A DNA stretch of 64,000 nt from a virus (IMGVR_UViG_3300031417_000358), one strand, 5' to 3'. Positions 17,396-58,859 are shown, numbered from the stretch's first letter. Notes: generated by a model not told the origin, from the letters alone. Translations and numbers: made by a program.

Positions 17396-17413
17396 CTATA
17401 CTCGGATAGGACA
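17396..17413 (+). promoter_or_regulatory. CTATAC-N6-AGGACA motif
   Basis: Exact motif upstream of the 17530 gene. Confidence 0.6.
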
Positions 17414-17529
17414 TATCTGCAAGGAACCCGTGTCTTCAGGAGTTTGGCTTTACAGCTAAACATGCACAAATTTGCCAGGCGAAGTTAACTATGGGTGAAC
17501 CAGCCTGGTATTCACACAAGGGATAAATT

Positions 17530-17745
17530 ATGCTTTTCGGTTTCGCAATCAATAACAACGGCAGCACCAACTTCGGCATCACTAAAGAAAATTCGGAAGA
17601 GGCCGCTCGCCAGAAGGTCGCCACCGAGACCGGCGTCTCCATCGACGATGTCGTCATGATGTCGGCCGAGGAAGCGCTGAACGAGTACGATGAAGTTGCC
17701 TTCCTGGCACCTGCTGAGCTGGCGCCGGCGGACATCGACGAGTAA
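17530..17745 (+). CDS. Small acidic hypothetical protein
   Basis: 71 aa; AGGGA RBS; followed by a terminator at 17761-17800. Confidence 0.7.
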   Translation: MLFGFAINNNGSTNFGITKENSEEAARQKVATETGVSIDDVVMMSAEEALNEYDEVAFLAPAELAPADIDE

Positions 17746-17962
17746 CAGCACTCCCCTCTCAACCCTTCAACTGTCTTTGACAGCTGGAGGGTTTTCTTTT
17801 GTCAACACCAGCGCCGGGCGCGCGAAGTCTCTGTGTAGCGACATTGGTAAGGCAGCGTCTGTTGCGTAGCTGTTTTGGTAACTCAGGTAGTGGTTTACGC
17901 GTGCGCCGGCGCTCGCCGCTATACGGAATGTAGGTCATTTACAATAGGACATTGGAGAAATC

Positions 17963-18439
17963 ATGAAAATCTGGAAAGCACGTGGCAAACAAGACGGCAA
18001 GCTGGGGGAAGTATCGGTTCGCGGCGAAACCTGGAAGGTAGCGGAAGCTGCCGCGCGCGCCGAGCACGGCATGGAGGTTCGCGACATGGTGCTGGTGGGC
18101 CTGCCGGACATCCTGCTCGGTCGTCTTTGCTCCGAGCATGGCTGGACCCGTGACCGCATTGTGCCCACGGTGTGGAAAGACTTCCCGACGGCGGTCGGCC
18201 CGAGGCGTGCATTCGTCCAGGTGGTCGTGCCCGACAACGGCCTGGGCCAAATCTGGCTGACGGGCGAATACACCAGCGAAGGCAACAATGCGCTGGTGGG
18301 CTGCGCGGCTTACCTGTCGCAGGATTCCGACCTCGAAGAACTCGACGCCGGCGTTGACGCGTTCGCACAGAGCGTGACGAAGGTAATCTCGGAGACCTAC
18401 GCAGGCCGGCTGCTGCGTCCGTATCCTCTGCCGTTATAA
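17963..18439 (+). CDS. Hypothetical protein
   Basis: GGAG RBS, CTATAC at 17919, terminator at 18460-18484. Confidence 0.75.
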   Translation: MKIWKARGKQDGKLGEVSVRGETWKVAEAAARAEHGMEVRDMVLVGLPDILLGRLCSEHGWTRDRIVPTVWKDFPTAVGPRRAFVQVVVPDNGLGQIWLTGEYTSEGNNALVGCAAYLSQDSDLEELDAGVDAFAQSVTKVISETYAGRLLRPYPLPL

Positions 18440-18539
18440 GGCATTCCCGTAGCATCCTCAAGCCCAGCACTGCTGGGCTTTTTTCGTGGGCGCGCAAAAG
18501 AAAATCGCTCCGGTGAGGGAGCGATTAGGGGAGAAAGGG

Positions 18540-18920
18540 TCAGTCGTACATACGGTTACTGTGCACGAGGTCGTACTGCCTCATCAGGTCTGCCAGGTTG
18601 TCGCGGAAGCGTTTGTCCAGTTCGGTGTCGATGAAACCAATCTGCTTGACGCTTTTCACGAAGTCCGAGTCAATCGAATAGAGCGCCGCGTTGCGGACCC
18701 AGACGATGACTTCGTCAGCATGAAAGCTGCTGTCCTTGAATGCCGGGCTCTTCTTGGTCAGAAGCGCGCCACCAACCGGAACTTCACCTGTGCGCATGAC
18801 CAGGGTCGTGCACGGTGCGACTGCGATACGGCCATTGACCATACCCAGAACCACAGCAGGACGACGTTTCTTATGCGGGTCCGACGGGTCAACCCAACCA
18901 GTGATAGTTACTAATTTCAT
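18540..18920 (-). CDS. PemK/MazF-like protein
   Basis: KKRRPAVVLG...IAVAPCTT matches the PemK/MazF N-terminal motif; GGAGG RBS before ATG 18920. Confidence 0.55.
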   Translation of the reverse strand: MKLVTITGWVDPSDPHKKRRPAVVLGMVNGRIAVAPCTTLVMRTGEVPVGGALLTKKSPAFKDSSFHADEVIVWVRNAALYSIDSDFVKSVKQIGFIDTELDKRFRDNLADLMRQYDLVHSNRMYD

Positions 18921-19097
18921 AAATGCCTCCATATCGGCTATTTCCACGTATTCGTATAGCGCGAAATGATGTGTATCCCGGTGCTGGAGGCTGCGTGGTA
19001 CGTTTTTCCGTGACGCATAACGACAAATAGGATTATCGTGATGTGTCACAAAAAACCTCCATGGCATTGCTGCGCATGGAGGTCGGAGAGCGGTTTT

Positions 19098-19334
19098 TCA
19101 GATTTCCCAGAGGTTCATCGACATGAATTTTCCGGTGTCGTCGAATTCGAACTGGGTCTGGAAGTTACTGTAGCCACCGATTTTCGGGTCGCCAGACTCA
19201 CAGTTGAGGCAGTTCGATGTCTTATCCTGTTTAAAGCCGATGCCCAGTTCGGTGAACAGCGCCATCACCTTTTCCTTGTCGGTCGGCGGCGTGACGGCAG
19301 TCTCGGTGATGGTCGGTGCGGTGTTGGTGCTCAT
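19098..19334 (-). CDS. Small hypothetical protein
   Basis: Own motif (19358-19375) and terminator (19050-19083). Confidence 0.75.
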   Translation of the reverse strand: MSTNTAPTITETAVTPPTDKEKVMALFTELGIGFKQDKTSNCLNCESGDPKIGGYSNFQTQFEFDDTGKFMSMNLWEI

Positions 19335-19357
19335 GTGCTGCCCTTTCTTTCAGTGGT

Positions 19358-19375
19358 TGTCCTGTTACGGTATAG
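19358..19375 (-). promoter_or_regulatory. CTATAC-N6-AGGACA motif
   Basis: Exact motif on the minus strand. Confidence 0.65.
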
Positions 19376-19474
19376 CGCACGCGATAGCAGGGCCGCACGG
19401 CACTGAAGATGTGACGCATCACGAAAAATCTCCACGCGCAGTAGTGCCGTGGAGATTGAGTGGGTCAGATTGGC

Positions 19475-20355: not shown

Positions 20356-20371
20356 TCTTCTTCCTCCGATT

Positions 20372-21016
20372 TCAGTGTAATGCGTCTTCAAAATAGGGGC
20401 GCGGCGCCTGCAGTGCGATGAAGCACGTCTGGTCGTCCAGGTCGCCCACCTGTTCCTTCTTTGCGGTATTTACGTACTGCACCATGCCAAAGCCGCGAGC
20501 CACAAGGATGTCCCGGTACGCACGAGCGATGTCGGCCTGCAGGGCGCGATGTTCTCGCAGGTCCGTGTACCCGGCCATTTCCCATGCGCCGCTCTTGCGG
20601 ATGTGCTCGAGGAGCGATGGCCCATCCGGGTAGCCAAACACCGGCGCCAGGCGCGCGACCAGGTCGGGGCGTTCGGGGAATACCACCTTGCCGATGTCGT
20701 GCGCGATGGCGTGGTAGTCCACCGCGAATAGCCCAAGCCAGTAGCCCTTTTCAGGGTGCATGAGCCGGCTGTATGCGCCGGGGAAGTCCGAATACTGCTG
20801 GTTCACCTTGTAGATGGCGCCGGTCAGGCGCACCGGCATGATGCGTCCGCCGTACCGCTTGCCATGTCCTTTGCGTCCGGGGTTCCTGAGCGCGAAGCGG
20901 TTGGCCAGGGCGGGTGTCTTCGAGAAGTGCGGACCGACCATGCGGTCGACCGACTCTTCTCCGGTGATGAAATTGTCGATGTCGACTTTGGTGCCGTGAT
21001 AGCCGATGATGTGCAT
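20372..21016 (-). CDS. ADP-ribosyltransferase-like protein (ART-PolyVal-like)
   Basis: YHGT, GPHFS..P..A..FA, GRIMPVRL, GFGMVQY.N. Confidence 0.55.
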   Translation of the reverse strand: MHIIGYHGTKVDIDNFITGEESVDRMVGPHFSKTPALANRFALRNPGRKGHGKRYGGRIMPVRLTGAIYKVNQQYSDFPGAYSRLMHPEKGYWLGLFAVDYHAIAHDIGKVVFPERPDLVARLAPVFGYPDGPSLLEHIRKSGAWEMAGYTDLREHRALQADIARAYRDILVARGFGMVQYVNTAKKEQVGDLDDQTCFIALQAPRPYFEDALH

Positions 21017-21032: not shown

Positions 21033-21050
21033 TGTCCTGAAGGCGTATAG
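21033..21050 (-). promoter_or_regulatory. CTATAC-N6-AGGACA motif
   Basis: Exact motif. Confidence 0.65.
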
Positions 21051-21083: not shown

Positions 21084-21110
21084 AAAACCGCGACCAGAGA
21101 CTGGCCGCGG
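21084..21110 (-). terminator. Terminator, duplicated at 22679-22705
   Basis: AAAACCGCGACCAGAGA(C/A)TGGCCGCGG, 26 of 27 bases identical. Confidence 0.75.
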
Positions 21111-21122
21111 CGGGGTTGAGGT

Positions 21123-22211
21123 TTAGATTGTCCGTACGTTCACGCAGGCGATGGCGGTCTTGAGCTTGCTGGTGGCCAGCTCGCGGTAGTCCTCCTTGTT
21201 CGACCTCACGTACACGTTGGCGCCGGTGGCCATCACGAAGTCACGCAGCACGTCCAGCGCCAGCTGATAGTGCGGCATGTCCAGGTAGGTCAGCACGTCG
21301 GTGATGCCCAGCCACGATTGCGGCGTGACGTCATCGAAGGCCAGGGCCAGGTAGACGCAGAACGCCAGACCATACTGCTCTCCGGTGCCCAGCGCATACC
21401 AGGACATCGGAGACCGCTCGCCGCAGCGCTCGACGATGACGTCCGCAGCACCAGGCCCCAGTTCGAAGTCGGTACCCATGACGCGCCGCACGAGCACATT
21501 TGCCAACGCGGTGAGCCGGCGGCTGCGCGGATGCTGGTTCAGCTTGTCGAGCCAGCAGCGCGGGTCGCGAACATACGCAAATGGGTGCGTGACCGTCGCG
21601 GCGAAGTCGCGCATCGGGGCATGGCCCTGGAGCGGATTCTCGCGCTGCACGTCAAACGCCGGCAGGCGGAAGCCCTTGTGAGTCTTCCCGAACGGGTTGG
21701 CCAGCAGGCCAGCCAGCTCACGCCCGCGGCAGACGACCTTGCGCACGCCACGCACATCCTGTTCGAGCAACCGCGCGAGGTCCCGGTTTTCCGGTTTCTC
21801 GAGCCAGTTGTCCATGTCGACGATGTACAGGTAGGCGTGCGGTCCGACCAGGCTGCTGCACGCGTCCTGGTACATCGCGACCTTCAGGCTGAAAAGGTCC
21901 GTTGCCGCGACCATGCGGCCAGCGAGCGCGCGCGCCAGGCGCTTCTCGTGGAAGTCGTCGGTGGCGAACAATTCGTCAGCCGACACCAGTGCAACCAGGG
22001 AGGCCGGCGATGGCGAGCTCGGGGTGAGCAGCACCAGGCCGTCCTGTTCGACGCACGACAGCTGCAGCATGTCCAGCAGCGCCGTCAGGCGTGCCGGTCC
22101 GGTTTCGTCCGGCGCCGTCAGGCCGTAGGTTTCGCGCCGTTCGCGGATTGTTTCCCAGTCCGTGCAGGCCGATGCTTCGAAGTCTTCTTCTTTCAACAGG
22201 GGTAATGCCAT
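21123..22211 (-). CDS. Degenerate ABC/SMC-type ATPase-like protein, paralog 1
   Basis: LGTGEQ signature-like, WLGITDVLTYLD Walker B/D-loop-like, no GK in the P-loop position. Confidence 0.6.
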   Translation of the reverse strand: MALPLLKEEDFEASACTDWETIRERRETYGLTAPDETGPARLTALLDMLQLSCVEQDGLVLLTPSSPSPASLVALVSADELFATDDFHEKRLARALAGRMVAATDLFSLKVAMYQDACSSLVGPHAYLYIVDMDNWLEKPENRDLARLLEQDVRGVRKVVCRGRELAGLLANPFGKTHKGFRLPAFDVQRENPLQGHAPMRDFAATVTHPFAYVRDPRCWLDKLNQHPRSRRLTALANVLVRRVMGTDFELGPGAADVIVERCGERSPMSWYALGTGEQYGLAFCVYLALAFDDVTPQSWLGITDVLTYLDMPHYQLALDVLRDFVMATGANVYVRSNKEDYRELATSKLKTAIACVNVRTI

Positions 22212-22231: not shown

Positions 22232-22249
22232 TGTCCTAAAGCGGTATAG
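22232..22249 (-). promoter_or_regulatory. CTATAC-N6-AGGACA motif
   Basis: Exact motif. Confidence 0.65.
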
Positions 22250-22385: not shown

Positions 22386-22568
22386 TCAGGCTTGCTTCTG
22401 GTAGAGCCAGAGATTTAACAGCAGGTATAACGCGTTGGTACCGAGGGTGAATGTCCGACCAAAGCGAACGAAGTCACTTGGGGCGTTGACCTGAAAGAGG
22501 TACAGGCCCATGCCGAGCAGTACCAGGTTCAGCCCCATCAGCAGTTTGAGGATGTTTTTTGCCGACAT
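22386..22568 (-). CDS. Small two-TM membrane protein (60 aa)
   Basis: AAAGGA RBS before MSAKNIL; CTATAC at 22604-22609. Confidence 0.6.
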   Translation of the reverse strand: MSAKNILKLLMGLNLVLLGMGLYLFQVNAPSDFVRFGRTFTLGTNALYLLLNLWLYQKQA

Positions 22569-22678
22569 AATATTTCCTTTGGATAGTAAGTTTCCACGTT
22601 GCAGTATAGCCATCGCCGGCCAGCGTCTTGTCATGCCTCGAGGAACTGGTGCCAACATGCGCGCCGGCGCCGCAAGAT

Positions 22679-22705
22679 AAAACCGCGACCAGAGAATGGC
22701 CGCGG
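22679..22705 (-). terminator. Terminator, duplicate of 21084-21110
   Basis: Near-identical hairpin after paralog 2. Confidence 0.75.
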
Positions 22706-22715
22706 TGGATGAGAC

Positions 22716-23807
22716 TTAGGTTGCCAACGCTTTGAGGTGCTTGCCGGCGGCCTCGAGCTTGGCGCTGGTCAGCTCCCGGTAATCGCTCTTGTTGGTCCTG
22801 AAGTAGACGTTCGCACCGGTGGCCACGACGAAATCGCGCAGCGCATCCATCGCAAGCAGATACTTCGTCAGGTCCAGATAATTCAGGACTTCCGAGATGC
22901 CGAGCCAGGTGTCCGGGGATGCCTCCTCGAACGCCAGGGTCAGGTATGCACAGAATGCCAGGCCATACTGCTCGCCGTTACCCAGGCAATGCCAAGGCAC
23001 CGACGAGCATTTGCCCCAGCGCTCCAGCAGCACGTCATCACTGTCGAGCTGCAACCGGTAGTCCACGCCTACGACACGGCGCGCGAGGGCGTTGGCCCGG
23101 GTGAGCAGTCGTGCCGCATCCGGATGGTGCTGCAGCGTCTCCATCCAGGTGAAGGAGTCGGGCACGCGCGCAAACGGATGGGTGACGGTCGCGGTGAAAT
23201 CACGCACGGGGGGCTCAAACGGCAGCTGGTCCCTGCGGTGCACCTCGAACTCCGGCCGGTGGGTCCCCGTGTAGGCGTCCCCGAACGGATTGGCCAGCAG
23301 CTGGGCCAGGTCACCGGGGCGGCAGATGAACTTGCGCACGACGCGGTCGTCCTGCTCGGTCATCAGCGCGATAGCCTGGTTGGTCGAGTCGGCCAGCCAG
23401 TTGTCCAGGTCGACCACGTACAGGTACGCGTGCAATCCGGACAGCGAGCGGAAGCTGCTCTGCCACAGCGCGGCCTTTTTGCTGAACAGGTCGCCGGTGC
23501 CAGGTACACGGGAAGTGCGCCGCTGCGCCAGGCGCTCGTCCTGCGCGGCATCCCAGGCGAACAGTTCGCTCGCCGAGACTAGGGCGATGGTGGAATGGGA
23601 CGGGCGGTCTGGGGTCAGCACCACCAGTCCTTTCACCTCGCAGTGGGGCAGACCCAGTTCCGACAGCAGCGCCATGATGCGCGCCGGGCCGGTTTCATCC
23701 GGCGCCGACACGCGGTAGTCCTCGCGCTGTTCACGAATGGCGGCCCAGTCGGTGGGGCCTTCGCCGGCGTAGGGCAGGCGAGCGGTAGTGGAATTTGCGG
23801 TAGTCAT
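22716..23807 (-). CDS. Degenerate ABC/SMC-type ATPase-like protein, paralog 2
   Basis: LGNGEQYGLAF, WLGISEVLNYLD; aligns end to end with 21123-22211. Confidence 0.6.
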   Translation of the reverse strand: MTTANSTTARLPYAGEGPTDWAAIREQREDYRVSAPDETGPARIMALLSELGLPHCEVKGLVVLTPDRPSHSTIALVSASELFAWDAAQDERLAQRRTSRVPGTGDLFSKKAALWQSSFRSLSGLHAYLYVVDLDNWLADSTNQAIALMTEQDDRVVRKFICRPGDLAQLLANPFGDAYTGTHRPEFEVHRRDQLPFEPPVRDFTATVTHPFARVPDSFTWMETLQHHPDAARLLTRANALARRVVGVDYRLQLDSDDVLLERWGKCSSVPWHCLGNGEQYGLAFCAYLTLAFEEASPDTWLGISEVLNYLDLTKYLLAMDALRDFVVATGANVYFRTNKSDYRELTSAKLEAAGKHLKALAT

Positions 23808-23830: not shown

Positions 23831-23884
23831 TGTCCTGAAGAGGTATAGGCCGCCGCGCGCGGCGCTATACGGCAGGGTAGGACC
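23831..23884. promoter_or_regulatory. Back-to-back divergent CTATAC motifs
   Basis: Minus: CTATAC-N6-AGGACA at 23831-23848; plus: CTATAC-N8-AGGACC at 23865-23884. Confidence 0.65.
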
Positions 23885-23947
23885 AACACGCTGGCCAAGG
23901 TATTTCGCCCGCCATGCATAGGACATATCACTTATAAAGGAATCAAC

Positions 23948-24520
23948 ATGCAACTGAACCTAGCACAATTTCTGCTCGCGCTGACCGCTAACTTCACCCA
24001 GGGTCTGACGGCAGAAAAGGGCATCGTCACGCTCGAAAGTGGCGACACGTTCGACGTCAAGGCGAACGCGAAGGCCCTGCAGACGCTCCTGATGTCGGCA
24101 TCGCTCGACCTGAAGGACGCGCACGAGCAAATGGTGCAGTTCGTCTCGAACCAGCCGGAAGACACGCCGTACTACCACGAGACGCGTGAGCAGCTCGTGG
24201 CCTACCGCCGCGGCCTCGAAGTCCTCGGTCTTGGTCTCGACGTCGCGCCGGTCGCCCTCGCAGCCGGTGACCCGGCCATGCAGGTGAGCACGGATGGCGG
24301 GATGACCTACCAGCCGGCGCTCAACGGCGTGCGCATCATCTACAGCAAGGTGGCCATTCCGGGCGAAGATTCGCCAGGCGAGCTGCACGTCAACGCCTCG
24401 TCCGAGGGCATCATCCTCGATGCGTGGACCACGCGTGATGAGCCGCTCGACCACAACATTGGCACTTCGTCGGAATCGACCGGCGACATCCTCGAACGCC
24501 TCGTGAAGGACAACGAGTAA
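23948..24520 (+). CDS. Hypothetical protein sharing its N-terminal ~37 aa with 24661-25269
   Basis: MQLNLAQFL..G.VT.E.GDTFDV. Confidence 0.75.
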   Translation: MQLNLAQFLLALTANFTQGLTAEKGIVTLESGDTFDVKANAKALQTLLMSASLDLKDAHEQMVQFVSNQPEDTPYYHETREQLVAYRRGLEVLGLGLDVAPVALAAGDPAMQVSTDGGMTYQPALNGVRIIYSKVAIPGEDSPGELHVNASSEGIILDAWTTRDEPLDHNIGTSSESTGDILERLVKDNE

Positions 24521-24576: not shown

Positions 24577-24596
24577 CTATACAGCGAGGTAGGACA
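24577..24596 (+). promoter_or_regulatory. CTATAC-N8-AGGACA motif
   Basis: Same spacing as the paralogous cassette at 23865. Confidence 0.6.
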
Positions 24597-24660: not shown

Positions 24661-25269
24661 ATGAAACTCAATCACGCACAATTTCTGGCCGCGCTGCAGC
24701 AGGCCAACGGTTCGGTGTCGGTCGCCGCTGGCCTCGTGACGTTCGAAAACGGCGACACGTTCGATGTCGCCGAGCACTCGCCGAGCGACACCGAGCAAGG
24801 CACCCCGTTGGAGGCGGCCCGCGCGCTGGCGGCAATCCACAAGAACGAGCCCGCCATCGTCGACGCGTTCCGCGGCATCAGCCAGCGCGAGCGCAACCAC
24901 CTGGCGGCCGCGCTGTCGGCGTTCTACCCGGTGCTGGTCATGGAGAACAAGTACCAGCCTGTGCTGCTGGATGAGCCCATCAAAATCCCGGTGACCACGT
25001 ACGAGGAGGGCCTGGCCGTCCAGCGCGCACTGTTCGCCCTGGGCTGTGGCTTCCACCATGGCAGCTACCCTCTGGCGAAGGACATCTCGGACGAGTGTAC
25101 GCTCAGCGGCATTTTCGTGAGCCGCAAGGGCGTCATGACTGTCATGCCGTTCGCGGAGAAGGGCAGCGTCGACTACGTGGCAAACCACAAGGACCGTGCG
25201 GTGTCGCCCGCTACCGTGCTGGAGGCGACGACCCTGGCCGAGTTGCTGGGCTGTGACGCATCACGGTAA
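24661..25269 (+). CDS. Hypothetical protein sharing its N-terminus with 23948-24520
   Basis: MKLNHAQFL..GLVTFENGDTFDV; AAGGGAAG RBS. Confidence 0.75.
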   Translation: MKLNHAQFLAALQQANGSVSVAAGLVTFENGDTFDVAEHSPSDTEQGTPLEAARALAAIHKNEPAIVDAFRGISQRERNHLAAALSAFYPVLVMENKYQPVLLDEPIKIPVTTYEEGLAVQRALFALGCGFHHGSYPLAKDISDECTLSGIFVSRKGVMTVMPFAEKGSVDYVANHKDRAVSPATVLEATTLAELLGCDASR

Positions 25270-25784: not shown

Positions 25785-26219
25785 TTACTGGATGCTCAGC
25801 TTGTCCGGCATGAGACCAATGGCCATGTCGATGCGGCCGTCGGGCTCCTGCAGATAGATGATGTCGTAGCCCTGGATGATGAGCTCGGTCCGGTACGCGG
25901 TGTAAATGCGTCGCTCGGTCGCCGCAACTTCATCATCGTCGGCCAGCTCCCGGGTGAGGCGGCCCACCTCGTTGTTCAGGCGGCTCAGCTCCTGCAGCTG
26001 CATCACGTAGGGCTTCTCGACGCGCACGTCCACGTCCAGGCAGGTCTTGCCGAATCGCTCGGCAAGCTCACGCCCAACGGCCAGCCACACGCCCAGGTGC
26101 CCGTTGCCCGACATGCCCGGGCGCGCAGCGAAGTCCAGGCTGAAGCGCTCGAACCGCTGTTGCGCGCCGTGGTACATGCGAACCGTGCCGGCCATAGCCA
26201 GCGGCGTGGTGTGATTCAT
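25785..26219 (-). CDS. ADP-ribosyltransferase-like protein (ART-PolyVal-like)
   Basis: MYHG....FERF, GNGHLGVWL...A..FG, V.VEKPY, QGYDII. Confidence 0.55.
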   Translation of the reverse strand: MNHTTPLAMAGTVRMYHGAQQRFERFSLDFAARPGMSGNGHLGVWLAVGRELAERFGKTCLDVDVRVEKPYVMQLQELSRLNNEVGRLTRELADDDEVAATERRIYTAYRTELIIQGYDIIYLQEPDGRIDMAIGLMPDKLSIQ

Positions 26220-26236: not shown

Positions 26237-26254
26237 TGTCCTTGTCCGGTATAG
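26237..26254 (-). promoter_or_regulatory. CTATAC-N6-AGGACA motif
   Basis: Exact motif. Confidence 0.65.
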
Positions 26255-26289
26255 CGGCAAGGCCCGGCGCCGTGCTCGGCGCGGCAACG

Positions 26290-26307
26290 CTATACCTCTG
26301 CATGACA
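26290..26307 (+). promoter_or_regulatory. CTATAC-N6-ATGACA variant overlapping a start codon
   Basis: ATG 26302 occupies the AGG position of the motif; no SD visible. Confidence 0.55.
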
Positions 26308-26883
26308 AAAACCTCCCTCGGCCTCCTGGCCCTCAGTCTGTGCACGACCGCGGTCGCCGCGCCGGCGCGCCAACCCTCGCTGGTCGGCGACGTCGCGCTC
26401 TCCGCCACCCCGGACGACGCATCGCTCAAGCCGCAATGGCGGGTCGACTTCGTGCCCCAGCGCGGCAACCAGCGGCCGCCGTTCTCGGGCCGGCTGCTCG
26501 TGTATCGCGCCGGCGAGCAGAAGCCGGCTGACGTCATCGGCGTCACCGCCCACGTGGCGCTGGAGGAGCTGCAGCTGTCCATGCCCGACGTCGACGGCGA
26601 CGGCCATCCCGACCTGGTGTTCGCCGGGGTGCGCGACCACGTCTACAAGCGCCAGGCTGACGCCGTCTACCTCTGGTCGGCGCCGCGCGGCCGGTTTGTT
26701 CTCGAGCCGGGCCTGTCGCGCCTGGGCACGGCCTACCCGTCAAACTCGACGCCAGGCTGCGTCACGGTGGAAACCTGGTGCGGCGACACGAGCATCGACA
26801 CCGTGGAGCTGTGCCGCAGGCCGAGTACCGGCCGCTGGGTGCAAACGCCCAACCCCAATCCCGTCTGCGAGGACCGCGATTAG
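26302..26883 (+). CDS. Secreted protein with a DxDGDGxxD (FG-GAP-like) motif
   Basis: Sec signal; DVDGDGHPDL; Cys residues near the C-terminus. Confidence 0.7.
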   Translation: MTKTSLGLLALSLCTTAVAAPARQPSLVGDVALSATPDDASLKPQWRVDFVPQRGNQRPPFSGRLLVYRAGEQKPADVIGVTAHVALEELQLSMPDVDGDGHPDLVFAGVRDHVYKRQADAVYLWSAPRGRFVLEPGLSRLGTAYPSNSTPGCVTVETWCGDTSIDTVELCRRPSTGRWVQTPNPNPVCEDRD

Positions 26884-26987: not shown

Positions 26988-27674
26988 TCAGATGTCCAGC
27001 GGAAAGACCTTCTCGGGCTCGGTCGCGCGTTCGGACGCAATCCGGGTCAACAGGTGCTGGGAATAGGGACTGTCGCCGTGGCCGAACAGGTTGTCGCCGC
27101 GGATGTACGCCGACGCCCAGGGTCCGACCTTTCCCAACGCCAGTGCTACATGCCGCAGCCAGTGCGTCAACGCCTGGCTGCCCTCGATGCGTGCGTTCAG
27201 CGCTGCGGTCGCGGCCACGTCCGGCTTCGAGTGGTGCGGCCCGTCCGGAATGCGGCAGCTGAGGGAGCCGTATACCTTGCGGTGGCGGTCTCGCTCGTTG
27301 CACAGCTGGATGTCGCAGCGCTCGGTTGGGTGCGCAGCGAAGAAGACCTGCATCTCGACCAGCATCGCGCGAAACTCGGCCAGTTCTTCCGCCGGCGCCA
27401 CGGCGGGCAGCAGCAGGAGCTTGGCCAGGTTCAGCGAGAGGAAGGTGCCATTTTCGGCCGGCGTCAGCACCAGGTCGACTTCCGAGATAGCCTTCTTGAC
27501 CTTGTCGATTTTGAGCGTCAGCAGGTGCAGCTCCATGAACACGGTCAACAGCCATTCCCGCGCGTGGTCCTTCGTGCGCATCGCCTCGCTCTTCGGCACC
27601 CTGATGTGCACGCGACCGTCCGCATCGGCGGAGTCGATGAGCGTGAGCATGCTCCAGGTGTTTGCAGGGGTCAT
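26988..27674 (-). CDS. Hypothetical protein
   Basis: AAAGGA RBS; motif at 27704-27721; terminator at 26913-26946. Confidence 0.75.
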   Translation of the reverse strand: MTPANTWSMLTLIDSADADGRVHIRVPKSEAMRTKDHAREWLLTVFMELHLLTLKIDKVKKAISEVDLVLTPAENGTFLSLNLAKLLLLPAVAPAEELAEFRAMLVEMQVFFAAHPTERCDIQLCNERDRHRKVYGSLSCRIPDGPHHSKPDVAATAALNARIEGSQALTHWLRHVALALGKVGPWASAYIRGDNLFGHGDSPYSQHLLTRIASERATEPEKVFPLDI

Positions 27675-27703: not shown

Positions 27704-27721
27704 TGCTGCATCCCCGTATAG
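27704..27721 (-). promoter_or_regulatory. CTATAC-N6-GCAGCA motif
   Basis: Exact second-subfamily motif. Confidence 0.6.
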
Positions 27722-27840
27722 CCGGCGGGCCAGGGTGTTGTCGCCTTGACAGCGTCGCGGGCGTCGCGCACCATAAGCACCGGTGCCGAAGACCACCCCG
27801 TACCGTGGGAAATCGGCAATCTGCGAGGTACGCGCGGACG

Positions 27841-27870
27841 AAGGCCGGGACATCCTGGCCTTTTTCTTTA
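27841..27870 (+). terminator. Plus-strand terminator with no plus-strand CDS immediately upstream
   Basis: AAGGCCGGG-GACAT-CCTGGCCTT plus T tract. Confidence 0.6.
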
Positions 27871-27959
27871 TGCGACGCGAAAAAAGCGCCAATTGGTGGC
27901 GCTTGAGTATGGATTAGTGTCAGGGCTCAGGTGCTGCAAGCATCAATGCCGGCCTGGAT

Positions 27960-28205
27960 GTGCTCAATGAGCTCCGCACGGAACTCTGCGTCTATCGGCT
28001 GTTGAGCCTGGAAGTAACTTACGACCGCCGCCAGGGCCGTGTACAGGGCCATCGGCGGCTCTTTGCTATTGCGCATGAAATGCAGCGAGGCGGAGCACGC
28101 GTTGTAGATTTCGTCGCGCTGGCCTGGGCCTGGATTTTGAATGTATTCCAGGCCGCGTTCCAGCTGCGATTTAATTGTCTCAGGGGAGAGGTCCGGCTCG
28201 CGCAT
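27960..28205 (-). CDS. Small helical hypothetical protein
   Basis: AAAGGA RBS before MREPDL; CTATAC at 28241-28246. Confidence 0.7.
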
Positions 28206-28270
28206 AGTCTGTCCTTTGTTTATGAGTTGGTCACGGGGCAGTATAGGCCGGCACCGCTCATCGGCCAGCG

Positions 28271-31846: not shown

Positions 31847-31935
31847 TTGTGCAAGCGTGTCGGCCTCAAATTCTAGGACCATTGTGCAGCCTTTGACACA
31901 TTAGACGCTATACGCTGCAAAGGCTTTCACATCCT

Positions 31936-32295
31936 ATGCGCGTCTACGTCTACTTCAATCTGCACAAGCTCCTGTGGTCTGTCCGAGCCCTGGAGGGCCC
32001 GAACAAGGGCCGCGTCATCCAGCACGCGCACGAGGTGTATCTGGTCGACTGCCAGTTCCGGGTGTCCGAGGCAGGCCGGCAGCGCGTGCTCCGCGAAAAG
32101 CGGAAGAACGTGCACGCCGGCGTCGTCGGTCACCTGGCGGAAGTTCCCGCCGGCGCGCCATCTGGCGACCGGGTCTCCTACAATCCGTACAAGCACCCGA
32201 CGTTTGTGCGCGCAAACTCGCTCGAGCCGGTCCGCCGCGCTGACTCGGTACTGCTGCGGGGCAAAGCCGCATTTGCGCACCTGGCCAGCGGGTAG
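31936..32295 (+). CDS. Phage-type conserved hypothetical protein
   Basis: VYFNLHK..WSV, AGRQRVLREKRKNVHA, YNPYK; CTATAC at 31908. Confidence 0.8.
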   Translation: MRVYVYFNLHKLLWSVRALEGPNKGRVIQHAHEVYLVDCQFRVSEAGRQRVLREKRKNVHAGVVGHLAEVPAGAPSGDRVSYNPYKHPTFVRANSLEPVRRADSVLLRGKAAFAHLASG

Positions 32296-32359: not shown

Positions 32360-32710
32360 TTACCACTCATAAATGCGGCCGTTGTGAACGGCAAAGTAGG
32401 TGTTGCGCACTTCCTTGAGACGCTCGAAATTCGCATCGCGGCGTGCTTGGAAGTGGGCATACGACTTGCCATCATCGATTTGAACCGGGTACAGCTGCAT
32501 CGATGGGTACGATTCACCAGCCCGCTCGCCGGTGACGTACCGCGGTCGTCCGGGATGAGCCATGCTTTTATCGAAGCGATAGCCCAGTTCGCGAAGCATC
32601 TCGGTGAGCCGCGCCACGGTGACCTGCACCATGCCAAGCTTTTCACGGGAGCTAAGTTCGGCGGCCAAGTCGTCAGGGACGGTGGATGCTACGGCAATTG
32701 CGTTCGACAT
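32360..32710 (-). CDS. Hypothetical protein
   Basis: AGAGG RBS; motif at 32739-32756. Confidence 0.75.
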   Translation of the reverse strand: MSNAIAVASTVPDDLAAELSSREKLGMVQVTVARLTEMLRELGYRFDKSMAHPGRPRYVTGERAGESYPSMQLYPVQIDDGKSYAHFQARRDANFERLKEVRNTYFAVHNGRIYEW

Positions 32711-32738: not shown

Positions 32739-32756
32739 TGCTGCACTCCCGTATAG
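32739..32756 (-). promoter_or_regulatory. CTATAC-N6-GCAGCA motif
   Basis: Exact motif. Confidence 0.6.
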
Positions 32757-34699: not shown

Positions 34700-34921
34700 G
34701 TTTTATATGTGGTCCGCCGACGTACGCTTTGCTCGCGCCGGAATCGACCGGCCGCATTGTGGCTTTCGCGTATCAGGTCCGCATTGTGCTGTTCATGGGA
34801 TAGGTGGTACTATACTATTTAAACCACATTTACGCAAGTCCGCGCCCCGAAATCTCGGCACGGTTAGTAGGCGTTTGCAATAATTCCTACTATACGGCGG
34901 GCATCCATCAACCCACCTTCT

Positions 34922-34939
34922 CTATACTGATTTGCAGCA
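34922..34939 (+). promoter_or_regulatory. CTATAC-N6-GCAGCA motif upstream of RNR
   Basis: Exact motif. Confidence 0.6.
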
Positions 34940-37794: not shown

Positions 37795-37918
37795 TGCTCT
37801 CTCCTAAAGTGTTGTCCTCGATGCTACCGTATAGCCGGTTGCCGGCTGCGCCCTGGCGGCCGACGTAAAAAAGCCCGCACGCTTTGGCCTGCGGGCTTTT
37901 TGCCGAGTTGACTGGCTG

Positions 37919-39934: not shown

Positions 39935-40078
39935 GGCATAGAGTTAAAGGCAGGTCTTAGGTATAGCGTTTTCAAACGCTGCACCCGCCGACTATCAAAA
40001 TTCTGGCCGCGTGCAGGTGCGGCCAGATAAGAGCCCGCACACGTGCATGTGCGGGCCTGATACCGGATTACCCGGCGG

Positions 40079-42118
40079 TTAGTTCAAAGGCAAAACATCG
40101 ACGGGCGAGTGCCGCTCAGTGGTCGTGCCGTCGCCCAGCTCGCCGTTCGGGTTTGAACCCCAGCATTTGGCTTCACCGTTCGACAGCGTCGCGCAGGTAA
40201 GGTAGGAGCCCGCCGAGATGCTCTGTACGCCACTGGTGAGCTCCGGGATATTGACCGTCGTGCCAGTCGAGGCTACGGTTGTACCGTAACCGAGTTCACC
40301 ATTGGAGTTCCCGCCCCAGCAGCGTGCGGCGCCAGCGCCCGTCACGGCGCAGGTATGCTCCTCGCCGGCGGAGACGATGCGCGAGCCATCCAGGGTGGTC
40401 ACTGGAGAGGGTCGGTTAGTGTTCGTGCCATCGCCGAGCTCTCCGTAATAATTGTCACCCCAGCACGCGCGACCAGCAGTGCCATTGACCACTACGGCGG
40501 CACAGGTGTGGTAGCCCCCTGCCGACAGCGCGGTTACACCAGTCAGGCCGGCCACAGCAACGGGAGCAGTGACGCCCCCCGTCGTGCCATTGCCCATCTC
40601 GCCCTCATTGTTGCGTCCCCAGCACATCACGCTACCGGACGACAGCAGGGCACAGGAGTGATAATCACCGGCCGCGACTGCGGTCGCGCCGCTCACGCCC
40701 GGAACGTCGACCGGATTATCGCTGTAGGGTTGTGTGGTTACGACACCCAGTTGACCTTTGTAATTGTCGCCCCAGCACTTGACGCCACCGGCCGAGGTAA
40801 CGGCGCAGGTATGGTACTCCCGGGCGGACAGGCTCTTGACCCCGCTGGTCAGGCCAGGTACATCCACTGGCGTGAGCTTGTCAGCCGAATAGCTCGCGCC
40901 CAATTCACCGGCCTCCCCCCAGCATTTCACGCCACCCGCCGTGGTAAGGGCGCAGGTGTGATTCTGTGCAGGGTAGATGCTTGCCACGCCGCTGGAGAGC
41001 CCGCTGACCACGGCGGGAGTGCTGCGGTTTGTCGTCGTACCGTCGCCAAGCTGGCCGTACCAGTTGGCGCCCCAGCAAACCGCGGCGCCGGCGGGGGTCA
41101 CCGCACAGCTATGGTAGTAGCCTGCGTAGACTTGCTTCACCTGCAGGGCCAGTCCGTTGACCACAATGGTGTAGAACTGCTCGTTGCTGACGTTCTTGTA
41201 GCTGGCGACGACACTAAACTGGCCGCCGGCCGTGTTCTTTACCGCAGGTGTTCCGGTCAGCACGCCGGTCGACAACAAGGTCAGGCCTTGTGGCAAGCCA
41301 TAGGCGGTGAACTGCGCATTGTTTGCCGTGTACGCCGGGTCGCCAGTGACAGTCAACTTGGACTTGAAATCGAAAGGCGCATAACTGGTGCTGACTTTCG
41401 CCGGCGGAAGCGTTGCCGTGGCCAACGCGACTTTGATGTCCAGCGACACCACCTGGAAGGTTTGGTCGCCGTTGCGGCCTTTGTACGTTGCACGGGCCGT
41501 CAGACTGCCGTTGCCGCCGGCGGTGGGTGTACCCGTAATCGTGCCATCGGTCTTCAGCTGCAGCCCAGCCGGCAAGGTGTCGGCAACCACCGACCAGGCC
41601 ACGCCCGAGCCGTTATATGCGCTGTCGCCGGTCACCGACAGCAGCTGCTTCAGGTCGTACAGGTAAGCTTTGCCGACGACCGCTTCGGGCGGCGTGCCGG
41701 CGGCCAGCGCGACGGTGATGTCGGCCACCACGATTTGGTACGACTGCACGCCGCCCTTGGTCTTGTAGGTCGCCTTCACCTGGAACGCGCCCGTGCCGGT
41801 GGCGGTCGGGGTGCCGCTGATGGTGCCGTCGGCGTTCAGCGTCAGGCCCGCCGGCAGGCTGCCCGAGGCGACGCTCCATTTCACGCCATAGCCGGAGTAG
41901 GCCGGGTCCCCGGCTACCGACAGCAGGGTCTTGAGGTCGAAGCCGGCGTAAGGGGTGCCTACCAGGCCCGTGGGCAGTGAATAGCCATTCAGCGTGACGC
42001 GAACGGCATCCGCGGTGGCGCTGGTACGGCCTTTCACCGGTACGACAACGTAGTAGCTCGACGCGAAGCTCGAGAAGCTGGCCAGGGCCAGCAGCGATGC
42101 AATGAGAGATTTTTTCAT
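40079..42118 (-). CDS. Secreted 3x Ig-repeat + RCC1-repeat protein (tandem paralog)
   Basis: Same architecture; start at ATG 42118 (MKKSLIAS). Confidence 0.9.
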   Translation of the reverse strand: MKKSLIASLLALASFSSFASSYYVVVPVKGRTSATADAVRVTLNGYSLPTGLVGTPYAGFDLKTLLSVAGDPAYSGYGVKWSVASGSLPAGLTLNADGTISGTPTATGTGAFQVKATYKTKGGVQSYQIVVADITVALAAGTPPEAVVGKAYLYDLKQLLSVTGDSAYNGSGVAWSVVADTLPAGLQLKTDGTITGTPTAGGNGSLTARATYKGRNGDQTFQVVSLDIKVALATATLPPAKVSTSYAPFDFKSKLTVTGDPAYTANNAQFTAYGLPQGLTLLSTGVLTGTPAVKNTAGGQFSVVASYKNVSNEQFYTIVVNGLALQVKQVYAGYYHSCAVTPAGAAVCWGANWYGQLGDGTTTNRSTPAVVSGLSSGVASIYPAQNHTCALTTAGGVKCWGEAGELGASYSADKLTPVDVPGLTSGVKSLSAREYHTCAVTSAGGVKCWGDNYKGQLGVVTTQPYSDNPVDVPGVSGATAVAAGDYHSCALLSSGSVMCWGRNNEGEMGNGTTGGVTAPVAVAGLTGVTALSAGGYHTCAAVVVNGTAGRACWGDNYYGELGDGTNTNRPSPVTTLDGSRIVSAGEEHTCAVTGAGAARCWGGNSNGELGYGTTVASTGTTVNIPELTSGVQSISAGSYLTCATLSNGEAKCWGSNPNGELGDGTTTERHSPVDVLPLN

Positions 42119-42285
42119 AAAAAACAGATAGATATGGGTATTCCGTATAGCGTCGGCTGGAGGCCGCTGTGGCATGCTTGACTTAATTTCTCGCCGGCGG
42201 CTCTATGAATTCGACGTTGGCGTGCTCACAGAGCGCAATGAAGTCCGCCAGGCTGAAGGCGGTGACGTAGCCCATGCGCTTTTCC

Positions 42286-53600: not shown

Positions 53601-55664
<2,064 letters not shown>

Positions 55665-55835: not shown

Positions 55836-55865
55836 GTGTTGTCCTCCAGTTAATTGTTTGCTTTG

Positions 55866-56156
55866 TCAGGCCAAGGCCGGTTCGCCTGCCGTGCGCAGGG
55901 ATGCCGATGCCTCAGTCTGGTCCTGCACTATCCGCAGCGCGTCAACGGCAGCCTGGTTGTGCACGTTTTCTTCCACATCGTAGTGCTCTGCGATGATGTC
56001 CGCAAATTCAGCGAAAGTGTACGCGCGCGGCGGCTGGCTGCGCAACAGGTAGCCGTACGAACCAATGGCCCAGTCGACGAGCATCGCCTGACCCTGGGTT
56101 GCAGCGAACGGTTTAATCTGGATTGCGCGGACGGCGGTAACGGTGATGAGTTGCAT
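55866..56156 (-). CDS. Hypothetical protein
   Basis: GAGG RBS before MQLITV; CTATAC at 56190-56195. Confidence 0.7.
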   Translation of the reverse strand: MQLITVTAVRAIQIKPFAATQGQAMLVDWAIGSYGYLLRSQPPRAYTFAEFADIIAEHYDVEENVHNQAAVDALRIVQDQTEASASLRTAGEPALA

Positions 56157-56345
56157 GGTTTTCCTCGAAAAGTAGTTGAACTGCATTCCGTATAGGTCGG
56201 CCGCGCGCCGTCCTGGCGTTGACCACCTGCAACCCGTAGCGAAGCCCTCTACCCGGAGGGCTTTTTTATTGCGCGCATCAGCCGGCGGCCCGGCTGTTTC
56301 TTCCTATACCGGTTGAGTTCAATCATTTTTAGAGAGGAAACAGCT

Positions 56346-58544
56346 ATGGATATGCAAGTGGATATGTTGAGCAGCATGACGCACACGAACGTCGTTCCGC
56401 TCGTTTTTCGCCCGAAGGTAAAGACCGAGGAGTTCGAGCCAGTCATCCTGGCTGCAGCGCCCGACGCAATTCTGGCCATGCCGGAAAACACCCTCCACGA
56501 GAAGGTGCTCAAAGGCGTGGCGGTGCTGAAGTGGGTGATGGCGCGCCACGAAATCTGTTTCAGCTACTCAGGTGGCAAGGACAGTTCGACGGTGCTTTCG
56601 CTGGGGATGGCAGCTGCCGCGCAGCTGCAGGCCGAGGGCAAGACTGTGAAGCGCTTCCTGGTGCTGAACAGTAATACCCAGGTCGAGAACCCGGAAGTTC
56701 TGGCGGTGGTGAACAGCGAGCTGGCTCGCATACGGCAGTGGATTGCGGCACATGGCCTGCCTGGGCACATCCGCATCACCGAGCCGTACCTGCTGAGCCA
56801 GTGGGCCGTCACCATCATCGGCGGACGCAACCTCATCAGTACGCCGCTCACGAACCGGAACTGCACGACGAACCTCAAGTCCGACCCGCTGAACCGCGTT
56901 CGCAAGCAGTTTTTCGGGCCGAACGAGGTCTCGAAGGGACAATTCACTGTCGGGGTCACCGGCGTGCGTTTTTCCGAGAGCGTCGAGCGGGCGGGCAACA
57001 TGGAGAAACGAGCCGAGTCACCCGTGCAGATTGTCCAGACCAGTGCGGACCAGGACGTGTTCCTGGCACCGATTGCAACCTGGTCGACCGACGACGTGAT
57101 GGAGTTCATCGGCCTGGCCGTCAACCGCGATGTTTTACCGGAAGACGAGCGTCTGCCCATCGGCACGTACAGCGACCTGGCGGACGTCTGGCGCATCTAT
57201 AAGGATGCGGAAGGCGAATGCACGGTTGGCCGCGGCGACAAGCCCTCGAAAGGCTGCGGAGCCAGGCACGGCTGTTTTGTGTGTTCTATGGTCAGCAACG
57301 ACCGTTCGATGGATGCGTTCCTCCTCCAGGAGCAATACAGCTACATGGCGCCGCTGGCGGCGTTCAGGGAATACCTGAACAACACCGTGCACGACTACAG
57401 CAAGCGCACCTGGATTGGCCGCACCATCAACGACGGGCATATTGCGTTTGGCCCGGACGTCTACTCGGCAGAGTATGTCCAGGACCTGCTGCGGTATGCG
57501 CTGACGATTGACCGCGATGAGAAGCGCGCAGCTGCGAAGCTGGGCATCGCACCTCGGTTCGAAATCGTCAGCATGCGTGCGCTGGTGGCCATCGACGCGT
57601 TGTGGTCTCTCCAGGCCTTCACGATGCCGTACGCCGCCCTGGCCATCTACCATGACGTTTATGTCAAGGGCAGGTCGTTCGCTGTGCCCTCGGTGCCCCT
57701 GGTGCCGAAGGGGACCTTGCCGGCGACACGCTACATCCCCGTCGAGGACTGGGATGATGGGGCAGCGGGGTTCCTCACGGGCCTTCGCAATCCCCTGCTG
57801 GAGCTGGCGTCGACCCAACCGCGAGAGATAGAAGTCAAGGGTGAGCTGCGCATGGCGATGGGCACGCATAGCGGACCGATGTTCGAGGTCCACGATGAGT
57901 CCGTCGAGATGATTCTGCTGTTCGAGCTGGACCGCCTGGTAGCCCGCTATCACGAGGCAGCCAGGGCAGAAGGGCGCCGCGCCTTCCGCGTGGCCGGCGA
58001 AGCGTACACCTTCTATGCCCAGTACGGTGCCATCTCCCTGGCCCGGTCGCAAGTCGGAGAAGTGGACTCCACCCTGCGTCGTTCCGCCTGGCGCGAACGG
58101 CAAGGGCTGGCAGGCTACAACTACGACCACGACAAGGCCTTCGCGATGTCGCTGGAAAAGCCGGTACCGGTCGCCGCGCGCAAGCGCCCGCCCGTGCCGA
58201 CTGCCGCTGAAATCCGGGAGACCGAGCGTCGTCATCGTCGCAATCTGGTTCACGGCCGGCGCATCCCGCTGGATGTGTTGTTCCGTGAATGGGCGCCGGA
58301 CGTCGCATGGCACCGGGTAGGCAAGCGGGGGCTCACGCTGTATCGGCTCCCGGCGAATTGCCTGCAGAAGGAAAAGAAGCAGTACAGCACCTGCCGGCGC
58401 AAGGGATGGGCCCTCCATCACTGCGTGCATCACGGTGACCTGGTTCGCTTCATCCGGGATAATCCGGACATCGCCCGGCGCGTGGTGGCTCACCGCTCGG
58501 CATCGTCCCGTCCTGGCCGGCAGATGGCACTCTTCGCAGCATAG
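56346..58544 (+). CDS. PAPS-reductase-family (DndC-like) protein with C-terminal extension
   Basis: SYSGGKDS, NCTTNLK, GVRFSES..R, GARHGCFVC; start ATG 56346 after AGAGG. Confidence 0.85.
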   Translation: MDMQVDMLSSMTHTNVVPLVFRPKVKTEEFEPVILAAAPDAILAMPENTLHEKVLKGVAVLKWVMARHEICFSYSGGKDSSTVLSLGMAAAAQLQAEGKTVKRFLVLNSNTQVENPEVLAVVNSELARIRQWIAAHGLPGHIRITEPYLLSQWAVTIIGGRNLISTPLTNRNCTTNLKSDPLNRVRKQFFGPNEVSKGQFTVGVTGVRFSESVERAGNMEKRAESPVQIVQTSADQDVFLAPIATWSTDDVMEFIGLAVNRDVLPEDERLPIGTYSDLADVWRIYKDAEGECTVGRGDKPSKGCGARHGCFVCSMVSNDRSMDAFLLQEQYSYMAPLAAFREYLNNTVHDYSKRTWIGRTINDGHIAFGPDVYSAEYVQDLLRYALTIDRDEKRAAAKLGIAPRFEIVSMRALVAIDALWSLQAFTMPYAALAIYHDVYVKGRSFAVPSVPLVPKGTLPATRYIPVEDWDDGAAGFLTGLRNPLLELASTQPREIEVKGELRMAMGTHSGPMFEVHDESVEMILLFELDRLVARYHEAARAEGRRAFRVAGEAYTFYAQYGAISLARSQVGEVDSTLRRSAWRERQGLAGYNYDHDKAFAMSLEKPVPVAARKRPPVPTAAEIRETERRHRRNLVHGRRIPLDVLFREWAPDVAWHRVGKRGLTLYRLPANCLQKEKKQYSTCRRKGWALHHCVHHGDLVRFIRDNPDIARRVVAHRSASSRPGRQMALFAA

Positions 58545-58572
58545 GAAAAACTACATTGAAAGGGACCATACG

Positions 58573-58743
58573 TTGAAAATTATCCGCGTGCACGTGCACA
58601 AGAAGCCGCGTGCGTTCGCACTGCCGGTCAGCCTGTGCCAGAAGGCCGCACTGCTCATGCGCGGTTGGCGCCCCGCTGACCTGCCCCATGTCCCTATGGC
58701 CTGGTGGAGCCGGCCCCGCCAGCCAGTCGGCGCAGTGCAGTAG
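58573..58743 (+). CDS. Possible small basic protein (56 aa)
   Basis: TTG start after GAAAGGGA; ends before a terminator. Confidence 0.35.
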   Translation: MKIIRVHVHKKPRAFALPVSLCQKAALLMRGWRPADLPHVPMAWWSRPRQPVGAVQ

Positions 58744-58767
58744 TTTTGCTTGAAGCAGTACCTCCAG

Positions 58768-58799
58768 ACGCCATGCATCCGTGCATGGCGTTTTCTTTT
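58768..58799 (+). terminator. Terminator, duplicated at 59403-59434
   Basis: ACGCCATGC-loop-GCATGGCGT-TTTCTTTT. Confidence 0.75.
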
Positions 58800-58859
58800 C
58801 CGCGCGCGCGTCAGATTTGCCTATACAGAGCGTGGTCATTCAACTAGGAGGAAAACACC

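Follow-up and report, generated by a model that had tools for sequence, protein, structure and literature searches.

A strict CTATAC word before genes of a giant plasmid-like Burkholderiales element: a candidate promoter class without a -35 box

In a 64-kb stretch of the ~508-kb contig IMGVR_UViG_3300031417_000358 (hereafter the window, at its full length), the hexamer CTATAC is a strict, oriented and intergenic signal that precedes about 25 genes, most of them of unknown function. We show below that this signal is very probably a promoter, whose transcripts would start at the first base after a spacer of six nucleotides (N6). Our preferred, although still tentative, reading is that CTATAC(C/G) serves as the -10-like core of promoters that need no -35, a class confined to a family of giant plasmid-like Burkholderiales elements and read by a dedicated factor. 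An initial annotation of this DNA had proposed such an element-wide code with a sigma factor or activator of its own; new here are a connection to megaplasmids of cultured Variovorax with no canonical sigma gene, the negative control replicons, and the start-site evidence from leaderless orthologs and 5' hairpins. We found no description of a CTATAC(C/G) promoter word in the literature, nor anything specific there on rpoS in Comamonadaceae.

Results

Abundance and strictness of the hexamer

CTATAC occurs 36 times on the two strands of the window, compared with 6.4 +/- 2.4 times (maximum 11) in shuffles of the window that preserve its dinucleotides, and the composite word CTATAC-N6-AGGACA, with up to one mismatch allowed, occurs 7 times where 0.12 matches are expected. 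All CTATAC positions listed in the initial annotation are present, including the exact CTATAC-N6-AGGACA words at 17396, 19358, 21033, 22232, 23831 and 26237, the exact CTATAC-N6-GCAGCA words at 27704, 32739 and 34922, and the N8 variants at 23865 and 24577. Its count of more than 20 genes behind a sense-oriented copy is also borne out, with about 28 copies lying in the sense orientation 6 to 80 nt upstream of a plausible start codon, mostly with a Shine-Dalgarno (SD) sequence. The intragenic copies at 14096, 47077, 49634 and 59720 look like chance occurrences, and the placement of the copies at 162 and 4004 is ambiguous.

For counts by context and by variant, the window was pooled with five related loci (157.5 kb in all) under a crude gene mask. 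Here, 76 of the 103 CTATAC copies fall in the non-coding 25% of the DNA, and the density of intragenic copies equals the chance expectation from composition. The strictness of the word is evident at both ends: 103 copies of CTATAC face 7 to 22 copies with another first letter and 8 to 12 with another last letter, and the one-letter variants stay at background level (CTATAA 8, ATATAC 13, TTATAC 7). Likewise, 20 of the 89 AGGACA copies have CTATAC exactly N6 upstream, and none of the 89 has a one-letter variant of the hexamer there. Enriched, oriented, intergenic, set at a fixed distance from start codons and conserved before orthologs, the motif behaves like the promoter code that it had been taken for, as far as sequence features can tell.

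Promoter anatomy and start site

Position matrices were built from 28 sites of the window and from 61 sites of the window and its relatives. Neither matrix holds information upstream of the hexamer; the 61-site matrix has an information content of about zero from -45 to -4, with no conserved -35 and no TG extended -10, and in both matrices the base immediately 5' of the hexamer is G or C. The base immediately 3' of CTATAC is C or G in 25 of the 26 sites of the AGGACA class and T in the remaining one (P ~7e-5 for so few A/T); the second base is mostly G (61 sites), and the discriminator is G/C-rich, not A/T-rich. Further downstream, N6 ends in a pyrimidine in 21 of the 26 AGGACA-class sites, the proposed +1 base is a purine in 51 of the 61 sites, and the SD follows only about 19 to 25 nt 3' of the hexamer, so that transcription should start between the two.

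From three features we strongly infer that +1 is the first base after N6, which is where the initial annotation had placed it for AGGACA and GCAGCA. First, a secreted 193-aa protein (26302-26883, with a weak FG-GAP match) has its ATG exactly at CTATAC+N6 and no SD; in its orthologs, the ATG stands at N6 on the related contigs L082 and L081 and at N5 on L087, again with no SD, and all four proteins carry an N-terminal signal peptide. This protein appears to be translated from a leaderless mRNA. Second, a transcript of the GCAGCA class would fold its first bases into a GCAGC/GCTGT hairpin of 5 bp, a 5' stem-loop that probably stabilises the mRNA, and nine such hairpins at promoters in the window, L085, L145 and L146 all begin at that first base after N6. 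Third, the Y(-1)R(+1) pattern reads as the start pattern of a multi-subunit bacterial polymerase.

Other readings of the repeat were tried and rejected. T7-like promoters of single-subunit polymerases are conserved over some 20 bases without a gap, from -17 to +6; in the present sites conservation is limited to 6 or 7 bases plus about 6, with a free N6 between them. Promoters of the sigma-54 and extracytoplasmic function (ECF) types, an integron-like or recombination site, and a repeat like a miniature inverted-repeat transposable element (the flanks are not conserved) were likewise discarded.

The initial annotation had described the copies as lacking a TTGACA-like -35 and, mostly, the final T of TATACT. 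This stands for the class as a whole but not for the CTATACT copies at 3591, 59519 and 62967, which all carry T(-7) and are the only ones with a good -35, TTGACA-like and at sigma-70 spacing (16-17 bp). Because of this final T and this -35, we set these three apart as ordinary sigma-70-type promoters, a separate class. That they use the same CTATACT -10 could suggest that the housekeeping sigma-70 also reads the other copies, as -10-only sites that make up for the lack of a -35 and of T(-7) by a G-rich discriminator and by starting at A(+1)G(+2); Y(-1)R(+1) and the G as second base of AGGACA would fit the start preferences of the core polymerase. However, the -35 promoters all carry T(-7) while the -35-less class avoids it, and the latter has no TG extended -10 in its place. 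A sigma-70 promoter that lacks the -35, the extended -10 and T(-7) together should be nearly inactive, and we regard this explanation as improbable.

The strictness of the hexamer also resembles that of a protein-binding site, as would suit a motif that is not a promoter core but an operator of an element regulator, or an RNA leader signal in which AGGACA is a ribosome standby site or the site of an RNA-binding protein, with the real promoters elsewhere. In line with this, long leaders have a further AGGACA some 20 nt ahead of the ATG, one that does not go with CTATAC (23919 in the window; also L082 and L085), and in one relative the word is itself the SD. AGGACA may therefore have a role in the mRNA as well, perhaps that of a standby site. 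As an account of the whole motif, though, this explanation is quite unlikely: the hexamer is non-palindromic and strictly oriented, the SD is no more than about 20 nt away from it, so that the start must fall between them, the leaderless orthologs hold their ATG at a fixed 5-6 nt from it, and no other conserved promoter-like element lies upstream, matches to the canonical sigma-70 consensus being not enriched (6 in 17-37 kb, 4.7 expected). CsrA was considered as the partner of AGGACA and rejected, as no csrA gene was found on the related Variovorax plasmid described below.

Conservation across relatives and control replicons

The motif stands before orthologous genes on seven contigs, L081, L082, L083 (Paraburkholderia aspalathi), L085, L087, L145 and L146. 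In an alignment of seven promoters, orthologous or paralogous, of 362-aa protein genes, CTATAC and AGG..CAA are invariant and the upstream DNA and N6 vary freely. Of the three promoter copies before a gene for a ribonucleotide reductase (RNR)-like protein, the first (an upstream CTATACT) and the third (with the hairpin leader) are kept in L145 and L146.

Density was measured as CTATACS-N5-R per kb, with the reversed pattern as control. The family has 0.28-0.66 per kb, its related loci giving 0.29-0.66 per kb compared with 0-0.19 per kb for the control, and the complete 839-kb plasmid of Variovorax sp. PBL-H6 is much sparser (0.085 per kb). This plasmid nonetheless carries five exact composite 18-mers, where the reversed control has none and about 0.05 are expected; all five are in the sense orientation, 20-110 nt before genes (for a macro-domain protein, an AAA ATPase, two hypothetical proteins and an RNR-like protein), and about 12 looser sites accompany them. 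In the record of this plasmid (NZ_LR594660.1), CTATAC stands at 71570, 158095, 293816, 717027 and 752508, among other places. Two unrelated Burkholderiales replicons, the Ralstonia GMI1000 megaplasmid (2.09 Mb) and Burkholderia pM7012 (582 kb), served as controls, as proxies for the host chromosome. Neither contains the composite 18-mer, and the density measure falls below its reversed control on both (75 vs 106, or 0.036 per kb, on the former; 27 vs 42, or 0.046 per kb, on the latter). The code therefore appears private to this element family, as far as two proxy replicons can test it, and shared by the whole of that family, in agreement with the element-wide code first proposed.

Which factor reads the hexamer

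Given that the T(-7) position is held by C or G and that one-letter variants go unused, the reader would be a dedicated one and not the housekeeping sigma-70. The strongest alternative to a factor of the element is the RpoS of the host. Under this alternative, CTATAC is the C(-13)TATAC(-8) of an ordinary RpoS -10 and the accessory genes of the element are tuned to host RpoS, as the transfer competence of ICEclc is tied to it, with no element factor needed. We give it a sizeable minority chance. The resemblance to RpoS-type -10 boxes had been pointed out in the initial annotation, and rightly: sigma-38 promoters of Escherichia coli read CTAtacT with no distinctive -35 (PMC3923258), and CTATACT is quoted as an RpoS site of Pseudomonas (PMC9866239).

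Several points weigh against our preferred reading, and most of them would suit RpoS. (i) The hexamer bears the RpoS-selective features C(-13) and C(-8), together with the lack of a distinctive -35 (compare PMC3923258), and by the first- and last-letter counts in the 157.5 kb the C at either end is strictly kept. (ii) Between elements whose proteins share only 30-65% identity, and from one host family to the other, the hexamer does not change, as would suit a conserved host sigma. (iii) The element-specific sigma factor or activator that had been proposed did not turn up in the sequence covered, 64 kb of the ~508-kb contig: scans with Pfam and PHROGs returned no sigma, polymerase or obvious activator gene among the ~70 open reading frames (ORFs) of the window, and no Sigma70_r2 match was obtained on the complete Variovorax plasmid, whose r4 and r4_2 matches are generic helix-turn-helix hits, mostly below cut-off and partly repeated copies. 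(iv) The runs containing the window stretch are two phyllosphere metagenome DNA runs, perhaps its source, with no RNA run listed. On the other side, the sites depart from RpoS promoters where these should be most constant. In promoters of group 1 and group 2 sigmas T(-7) hardly ever varies, yet C or G replaces it in nearly every AGGACA-class site; G dominates the second base after the hexamer and the A/T-rich discriminator is absent; and one-mismatch variants are unused, unlike in degenerate host regulons. The lack of enrichment on the two other Burkholderiales replicons points the same way but is a weak control, in whose background a small regulon would hide.

The absence of Sigma70_r2 from the Variovorax plasmid is as compatible with a reader encoded by the host as with a non-canonical one. 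Other candidates gave little: T7-type polymerase (PF00940) has no match on that plasmid, although the control genomes gave none either; gp55/gp33-like factors did not turn up in the general Pfam/PHROGs scans of the window ORFs, in which no profile was searched by name; and Atlas look-ups of a 357-aa and a 207-aa protein as reader candidates were without usable result. Returning to the dedicated reader, we think it plausible, at somewhat less than even odds but ahead of host RpoS, that it is an unrecognised factor encoded by the element. In a more specific and rather doubtful form of this proposal, the element family encodes a non-canonical specificity factor without detectable sigma-70 regions, which would recognise the -10 without using the T(-7) pocket and steer the host core polymerase to CTATAC(C/G) in a private, phage-style programme.

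Leaders, start-region words and cassettes

Both of the start-site subclasses suggested by the initial annotation exist in the window, where AGGACA-class and GCAGC-hairpin leaders are both real; leaders are predicted to be 20-35 nt long and mostly unstructured. The further idea that they are temporal classes found no support. The hairpin type is specific to genes rather than a class of its own; the RNR-like gene has the GCAGC hairpin in the window and in L145 but AGGACA in Variovorax. In some leaders a third start-region word, (A/C)GTTCAA(T/C), replaces AGGACA (window 56190-56320 and 58821-58845; L083 9957; L087 2156; L145 5663 and 9979). Divergent gene pairs have back-to-back CTATAC hexamers 16-39 bp apart (window 23843-23870 and 26249-26295; L081 4311-4359; L082 2723-2764; L087 2111-2161), and the two promoters of such a pair should therefore compete for polymerase.

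The description of the genes as single-gene cassettes fits much of 17-43 kb. Good terminator hairpins follow several motif genes (21087-21111, 22682-22706, 18460-18480, 18503-18526 and 27840-27863), but terminator-like matches overall are not above chance (20 vs 17). Whole promoter-gene units have been gained or lost between relatives, one example being a 60-aa gene (22386-22568) that is missing from L081.

Sites in the window

The sites are listed by position, with strand and the gene concerned.

3591..3597, plus strand: TTGCAT-16-TATACT before the HU gene (3658-3948); not of the private class.
13033..13038, minus strand: CTATACT, 62 nt before a 130-aa membrane (pilin-like) protein gene (12578-12970); the Variovorax homolog follows CTATAC-N6-GCAGCA.
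13207..13212, plus strand: CTATAC, ~32-41 nt before a He_PIG secreted protein gene (to 14333); conserved in L081.
17396..17413, plus strand: CTATAC-N6-AGGACA, then a 9-codon mini-ORF with SD; the first sizeable ORF (17530-17745, 71 aa) lies 128 nt downstream.
17919..17924, plus strand: CTATAC with N7 AGGTCA and a second AGGACA beside the SD; conserved 158-aa gene (17963-18439).
18954..18959, minus strand: CTATAC with start region GTGGAAAT; gene 18540-18920; promoter kept before orthologs in L081, L082, L085, L087 and L145.
19358..19375, minus strand: CTATAC-N6-AGGACA; 78-aa gene (19098-19334).
21033..21050, minus strand: CTATAC-N6-AGGACA; ADP-ribosyltransferase (ART)-like gene (20372-21016); terminator 21087-21111 after the upstream gene.
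22232..22249, minus strand: CTATAC-N6-AGGACA; 362-aa paralog (21123-22211); conserved footprint in the seven-sequence alignment.
22604..22609, minus strand: CTATACT; the 60-aa gene whose cassette L081 lacks.
23831..23848, minus strand: CTATAC-N6-AGGACA; 363-aa paralog (22716-23807); back to back with 23865, 16 bp between hexamers.
23865..23870, plus strand: CTATAC, N8 variant GTAGGACC; 71-nt leader, second AGGACA at 23919-23924, gene 23948-24520.
24577..24582, plus strand: CTATAC, N8 variant GTAGGACA; structured 72-nt leader, likely true start ATG 24661, gene 24661-25269.
26237..26254, minus strand: CTATAC-N6-AGGACA; ART-PolyVal-like gene (25785-26219).
26290..26304, plus strand: CTATAC-N6-ATG, apparent leaderless start of the secreted 193-aa protein.
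27704..27721, minus strand: CTATAC-N6-GCAGCA with predicted GCAGC...GCTGT 5'-terminal hairpin; gene 26988-27674.
28241..28246, minus strand: CTATACT; 92-aa gene (27927-28205).
31908..31913, plus strand: CTATAC, 22 nt before an L5-gp82-family gene (31936-32295).
32739..32756, minus strand: CTATAC-N6-GCAGCA; 116-aa gene (32360-32710).
34810..34939, plus strand: three tandem CTATAC (34810, 34890, 34922); class II RNR-like gene (34973-37318); the 34922 copy has the predicted GCAGCA 5' hairpin.
37829..37834, minus strand: CTATAC; 97-aa gene (37501-37794).
39961..39966, minus strand: CTATAC, 26 nt before an Ig(He_PIG)/RCC1 secreted protein gene (37919-39934), no SD.
42145..42150, minus strand: CTATAC, 26 nt before a second Ig/RCC1 gene (40079-42118), no SD.
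56190..56195, minus strand: CTATAC with start region CAGTTCAAC; gene 55866-56156; divergent from 56304.
56304..56309, plus strand: CTATAC with start region AGTTCAATC; PAPS-reductase-domain gene, likely start ATG 56346, end 58544.
58821..58826, plus strand: CTATAC; 174-aa gene (58860-59384).
59519..59525, plus strand: sigma-70-type TTGACG-17-TATACT; Prs-like gene (59547-60425); not of the private class.
62967..62973, plus strand: sigma-70-type TTGACA-17-TATACT; NAPRTase-like gene (from 63019); not of the private class.

The mini-ORF behind the perfect word at 17396 may be a leader peptide or mark a small RNA. Apart from the CTATAC class, an identical 11-mer, GTAAATCGCAA, lies just 3' of the -10 in the promoters of both the Prs-like gene (59519-59546) and the NAPRTase-like gene (62967-63018), and is probably a common operator of a regulator of NAD salvage. 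The gene classes named in the initial annotation (ART-like, 362-aa paralogs, RNR-like, and secreted Ig/RCC1 proteins) are indeed present behind the motif. The genes behind it that could be assigned comprise two ART-PolyVal-like genes, two of the 362-aa paralogs, and the L5-gp82-family, class II RNR-like, two secreted Ig/RCC1 and PAPS-reductase-domain genes.

The element and its relatives

No structural phage gene was identified with PHROGs among the window ORFs, and the window is free of tRNA genes. The rare 362-aa family counts 26 relatives in databases; protein and/or family-alignment scans found none in species-representative genomes or IMG/VR; in PLSDB, it occurs on four Variovorax megaplasmids only. 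The contigs that carry it and are syntenic with the window are the same seven on which the promoter motif is conserved, and they have in common a RuvB-like gene, a He_PIG protein, a histidine kinase with its response regulator, ART-PolyVal and DUF262. Of 73 window proteins, 18 have a counterpart on the 839-kb Variovorax plasmid, with identities of 74% for the RNR-like protein, 49% for LigA and 24-43% for the others; DUF262, the 362-aa family and an RNase II/R-like protein are among these 18. The Variovorax pPBL-H6-1 group are tRNA-carrying megaplasmids of linuron degraders with F-type transfer genes (PMC7313664), a paper in which transcription signals are seemingly not discussed. On the strength of these shared genes, the element is best described as a relative of such giant conjugative-type Burkholderiales plasmids.

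The RNR-like gene was rejected as a marker of the element, being a widespread gene with 599 viral-contig relatives whose loci show no CTATAC enrichment. A Variovorax "recombinase" (NZ_LR594660.1 752621-754852; L088 19299-21530) is 74% identical, over the full length, to the window RNR-like protein (34973-37318), and its annotation is probably a misnomer for an RNR-like homolog. A stand-alone RuvB-like gene (14407-15471), with neither ruvA nor ruvC, adjoins the motif-rich region and is kept in six related contigs at 74-92% identity; its counterpart on the Variovorax plasmid is a distant AAA relative only. The 158-aa protein (17963-18439) is conserved in all relatives, with 30% identity on the Variovorax plasmid. 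Its AlphaFold model (pLDDT 83) has two beta-sheet/helix units, the second of beta-beta-beta-beta-alpha type, and found no PDB fold match at E <= 0.001. A resemblance of this protein to transcription activator-like (TAL) effectors was dismissed, since the PDB sequence match consists of 16 weak matches to one 18-residue motif (which resembles a TAL-repeat junction) and is not robust.

Discussion

We propose a mechanism in which the multi-subunit bacterial RNA polymerase of the host, its core directed by a dedicated specificity factor instead of the housekeeping sigma-70, would start transcription at the seventh base 3' of the hexamer, a purine. Three outcomes are envisaged: short unstructured leaders that open with AGGACA, leaders that open with the 5-bp GCAGC/GCTGT hairpin and, for one conserved gene, a leaderless mRNA. 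The reader would most likely be a non-canonical protein encoded by the element and missed by current profiles, in the manner of gp55 of phage T4.

If this holds, about one-third of the genes of the window, and dozens more on relatives of up to 0.8 Mb, would be switched by one signal that sigma-70 should not read. Most of these genes have no known function; among them are genes for secreted Ig/RCC1, RNR-like, DUF262 and ADP-ribosyltransferase-like proteins. The signal would define a regulon of poorly understood giant plasmids and provide a sequence handle for finding their genes in metagenomes. Recognition of a -10 without T(-7) would, in turn, point to a new specificity factor or to RpoS being used in an unusual way. 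Because megaplasmids of Variovorax strains in culture carry the motif, the question can be tested directly at the bench.

How does this candidate class compare with known systems? With RpoS promoters, it has in common the first six letters, including C(-13) and C(-8), and the lack of a distinctive -35; it differs in the C or G that replaces T(-7) in 25 of 26 sites, in its G/C-rich discriminator, in the mismatch-free hexamer and in the conserved start region (AGGACA or hairpin). A second parallel is offered by the late promoters of T4, whose word TATAAATA is recognised by gp55 together with gp33 and the gp45 clamp. These promoters are likewise -35-independent, rely on one short and near-invariant -10-like word before many separate genes of one large element, and are kept across divergent relatives. 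However, the word is different, the reader is known in T4, and the present element resembles a conjugative megaplasmid (F-type tra in Variovorax) and not a T4-like phage. A third comparison is with SigN (ZpdN) of the Bacillus subtilis plasmid pBS32, a recognisable sigma-70-family protein encoded on the plasmid (PMC6751061). There too, a large plasmid has a promoter class of its own, apart from the housekeeping promoters of the host, but neither the window nor the complete Variovorax relative yielded a gene of the sigma-70 family. The closest cultured relatives remain the Variovorax pPBL-H6-1 group, which have the same promoter word before genes, although the motif is sparser on them (0.085 vs 0.28-0.66 per kb) and protein identities are mostly 30-45%.

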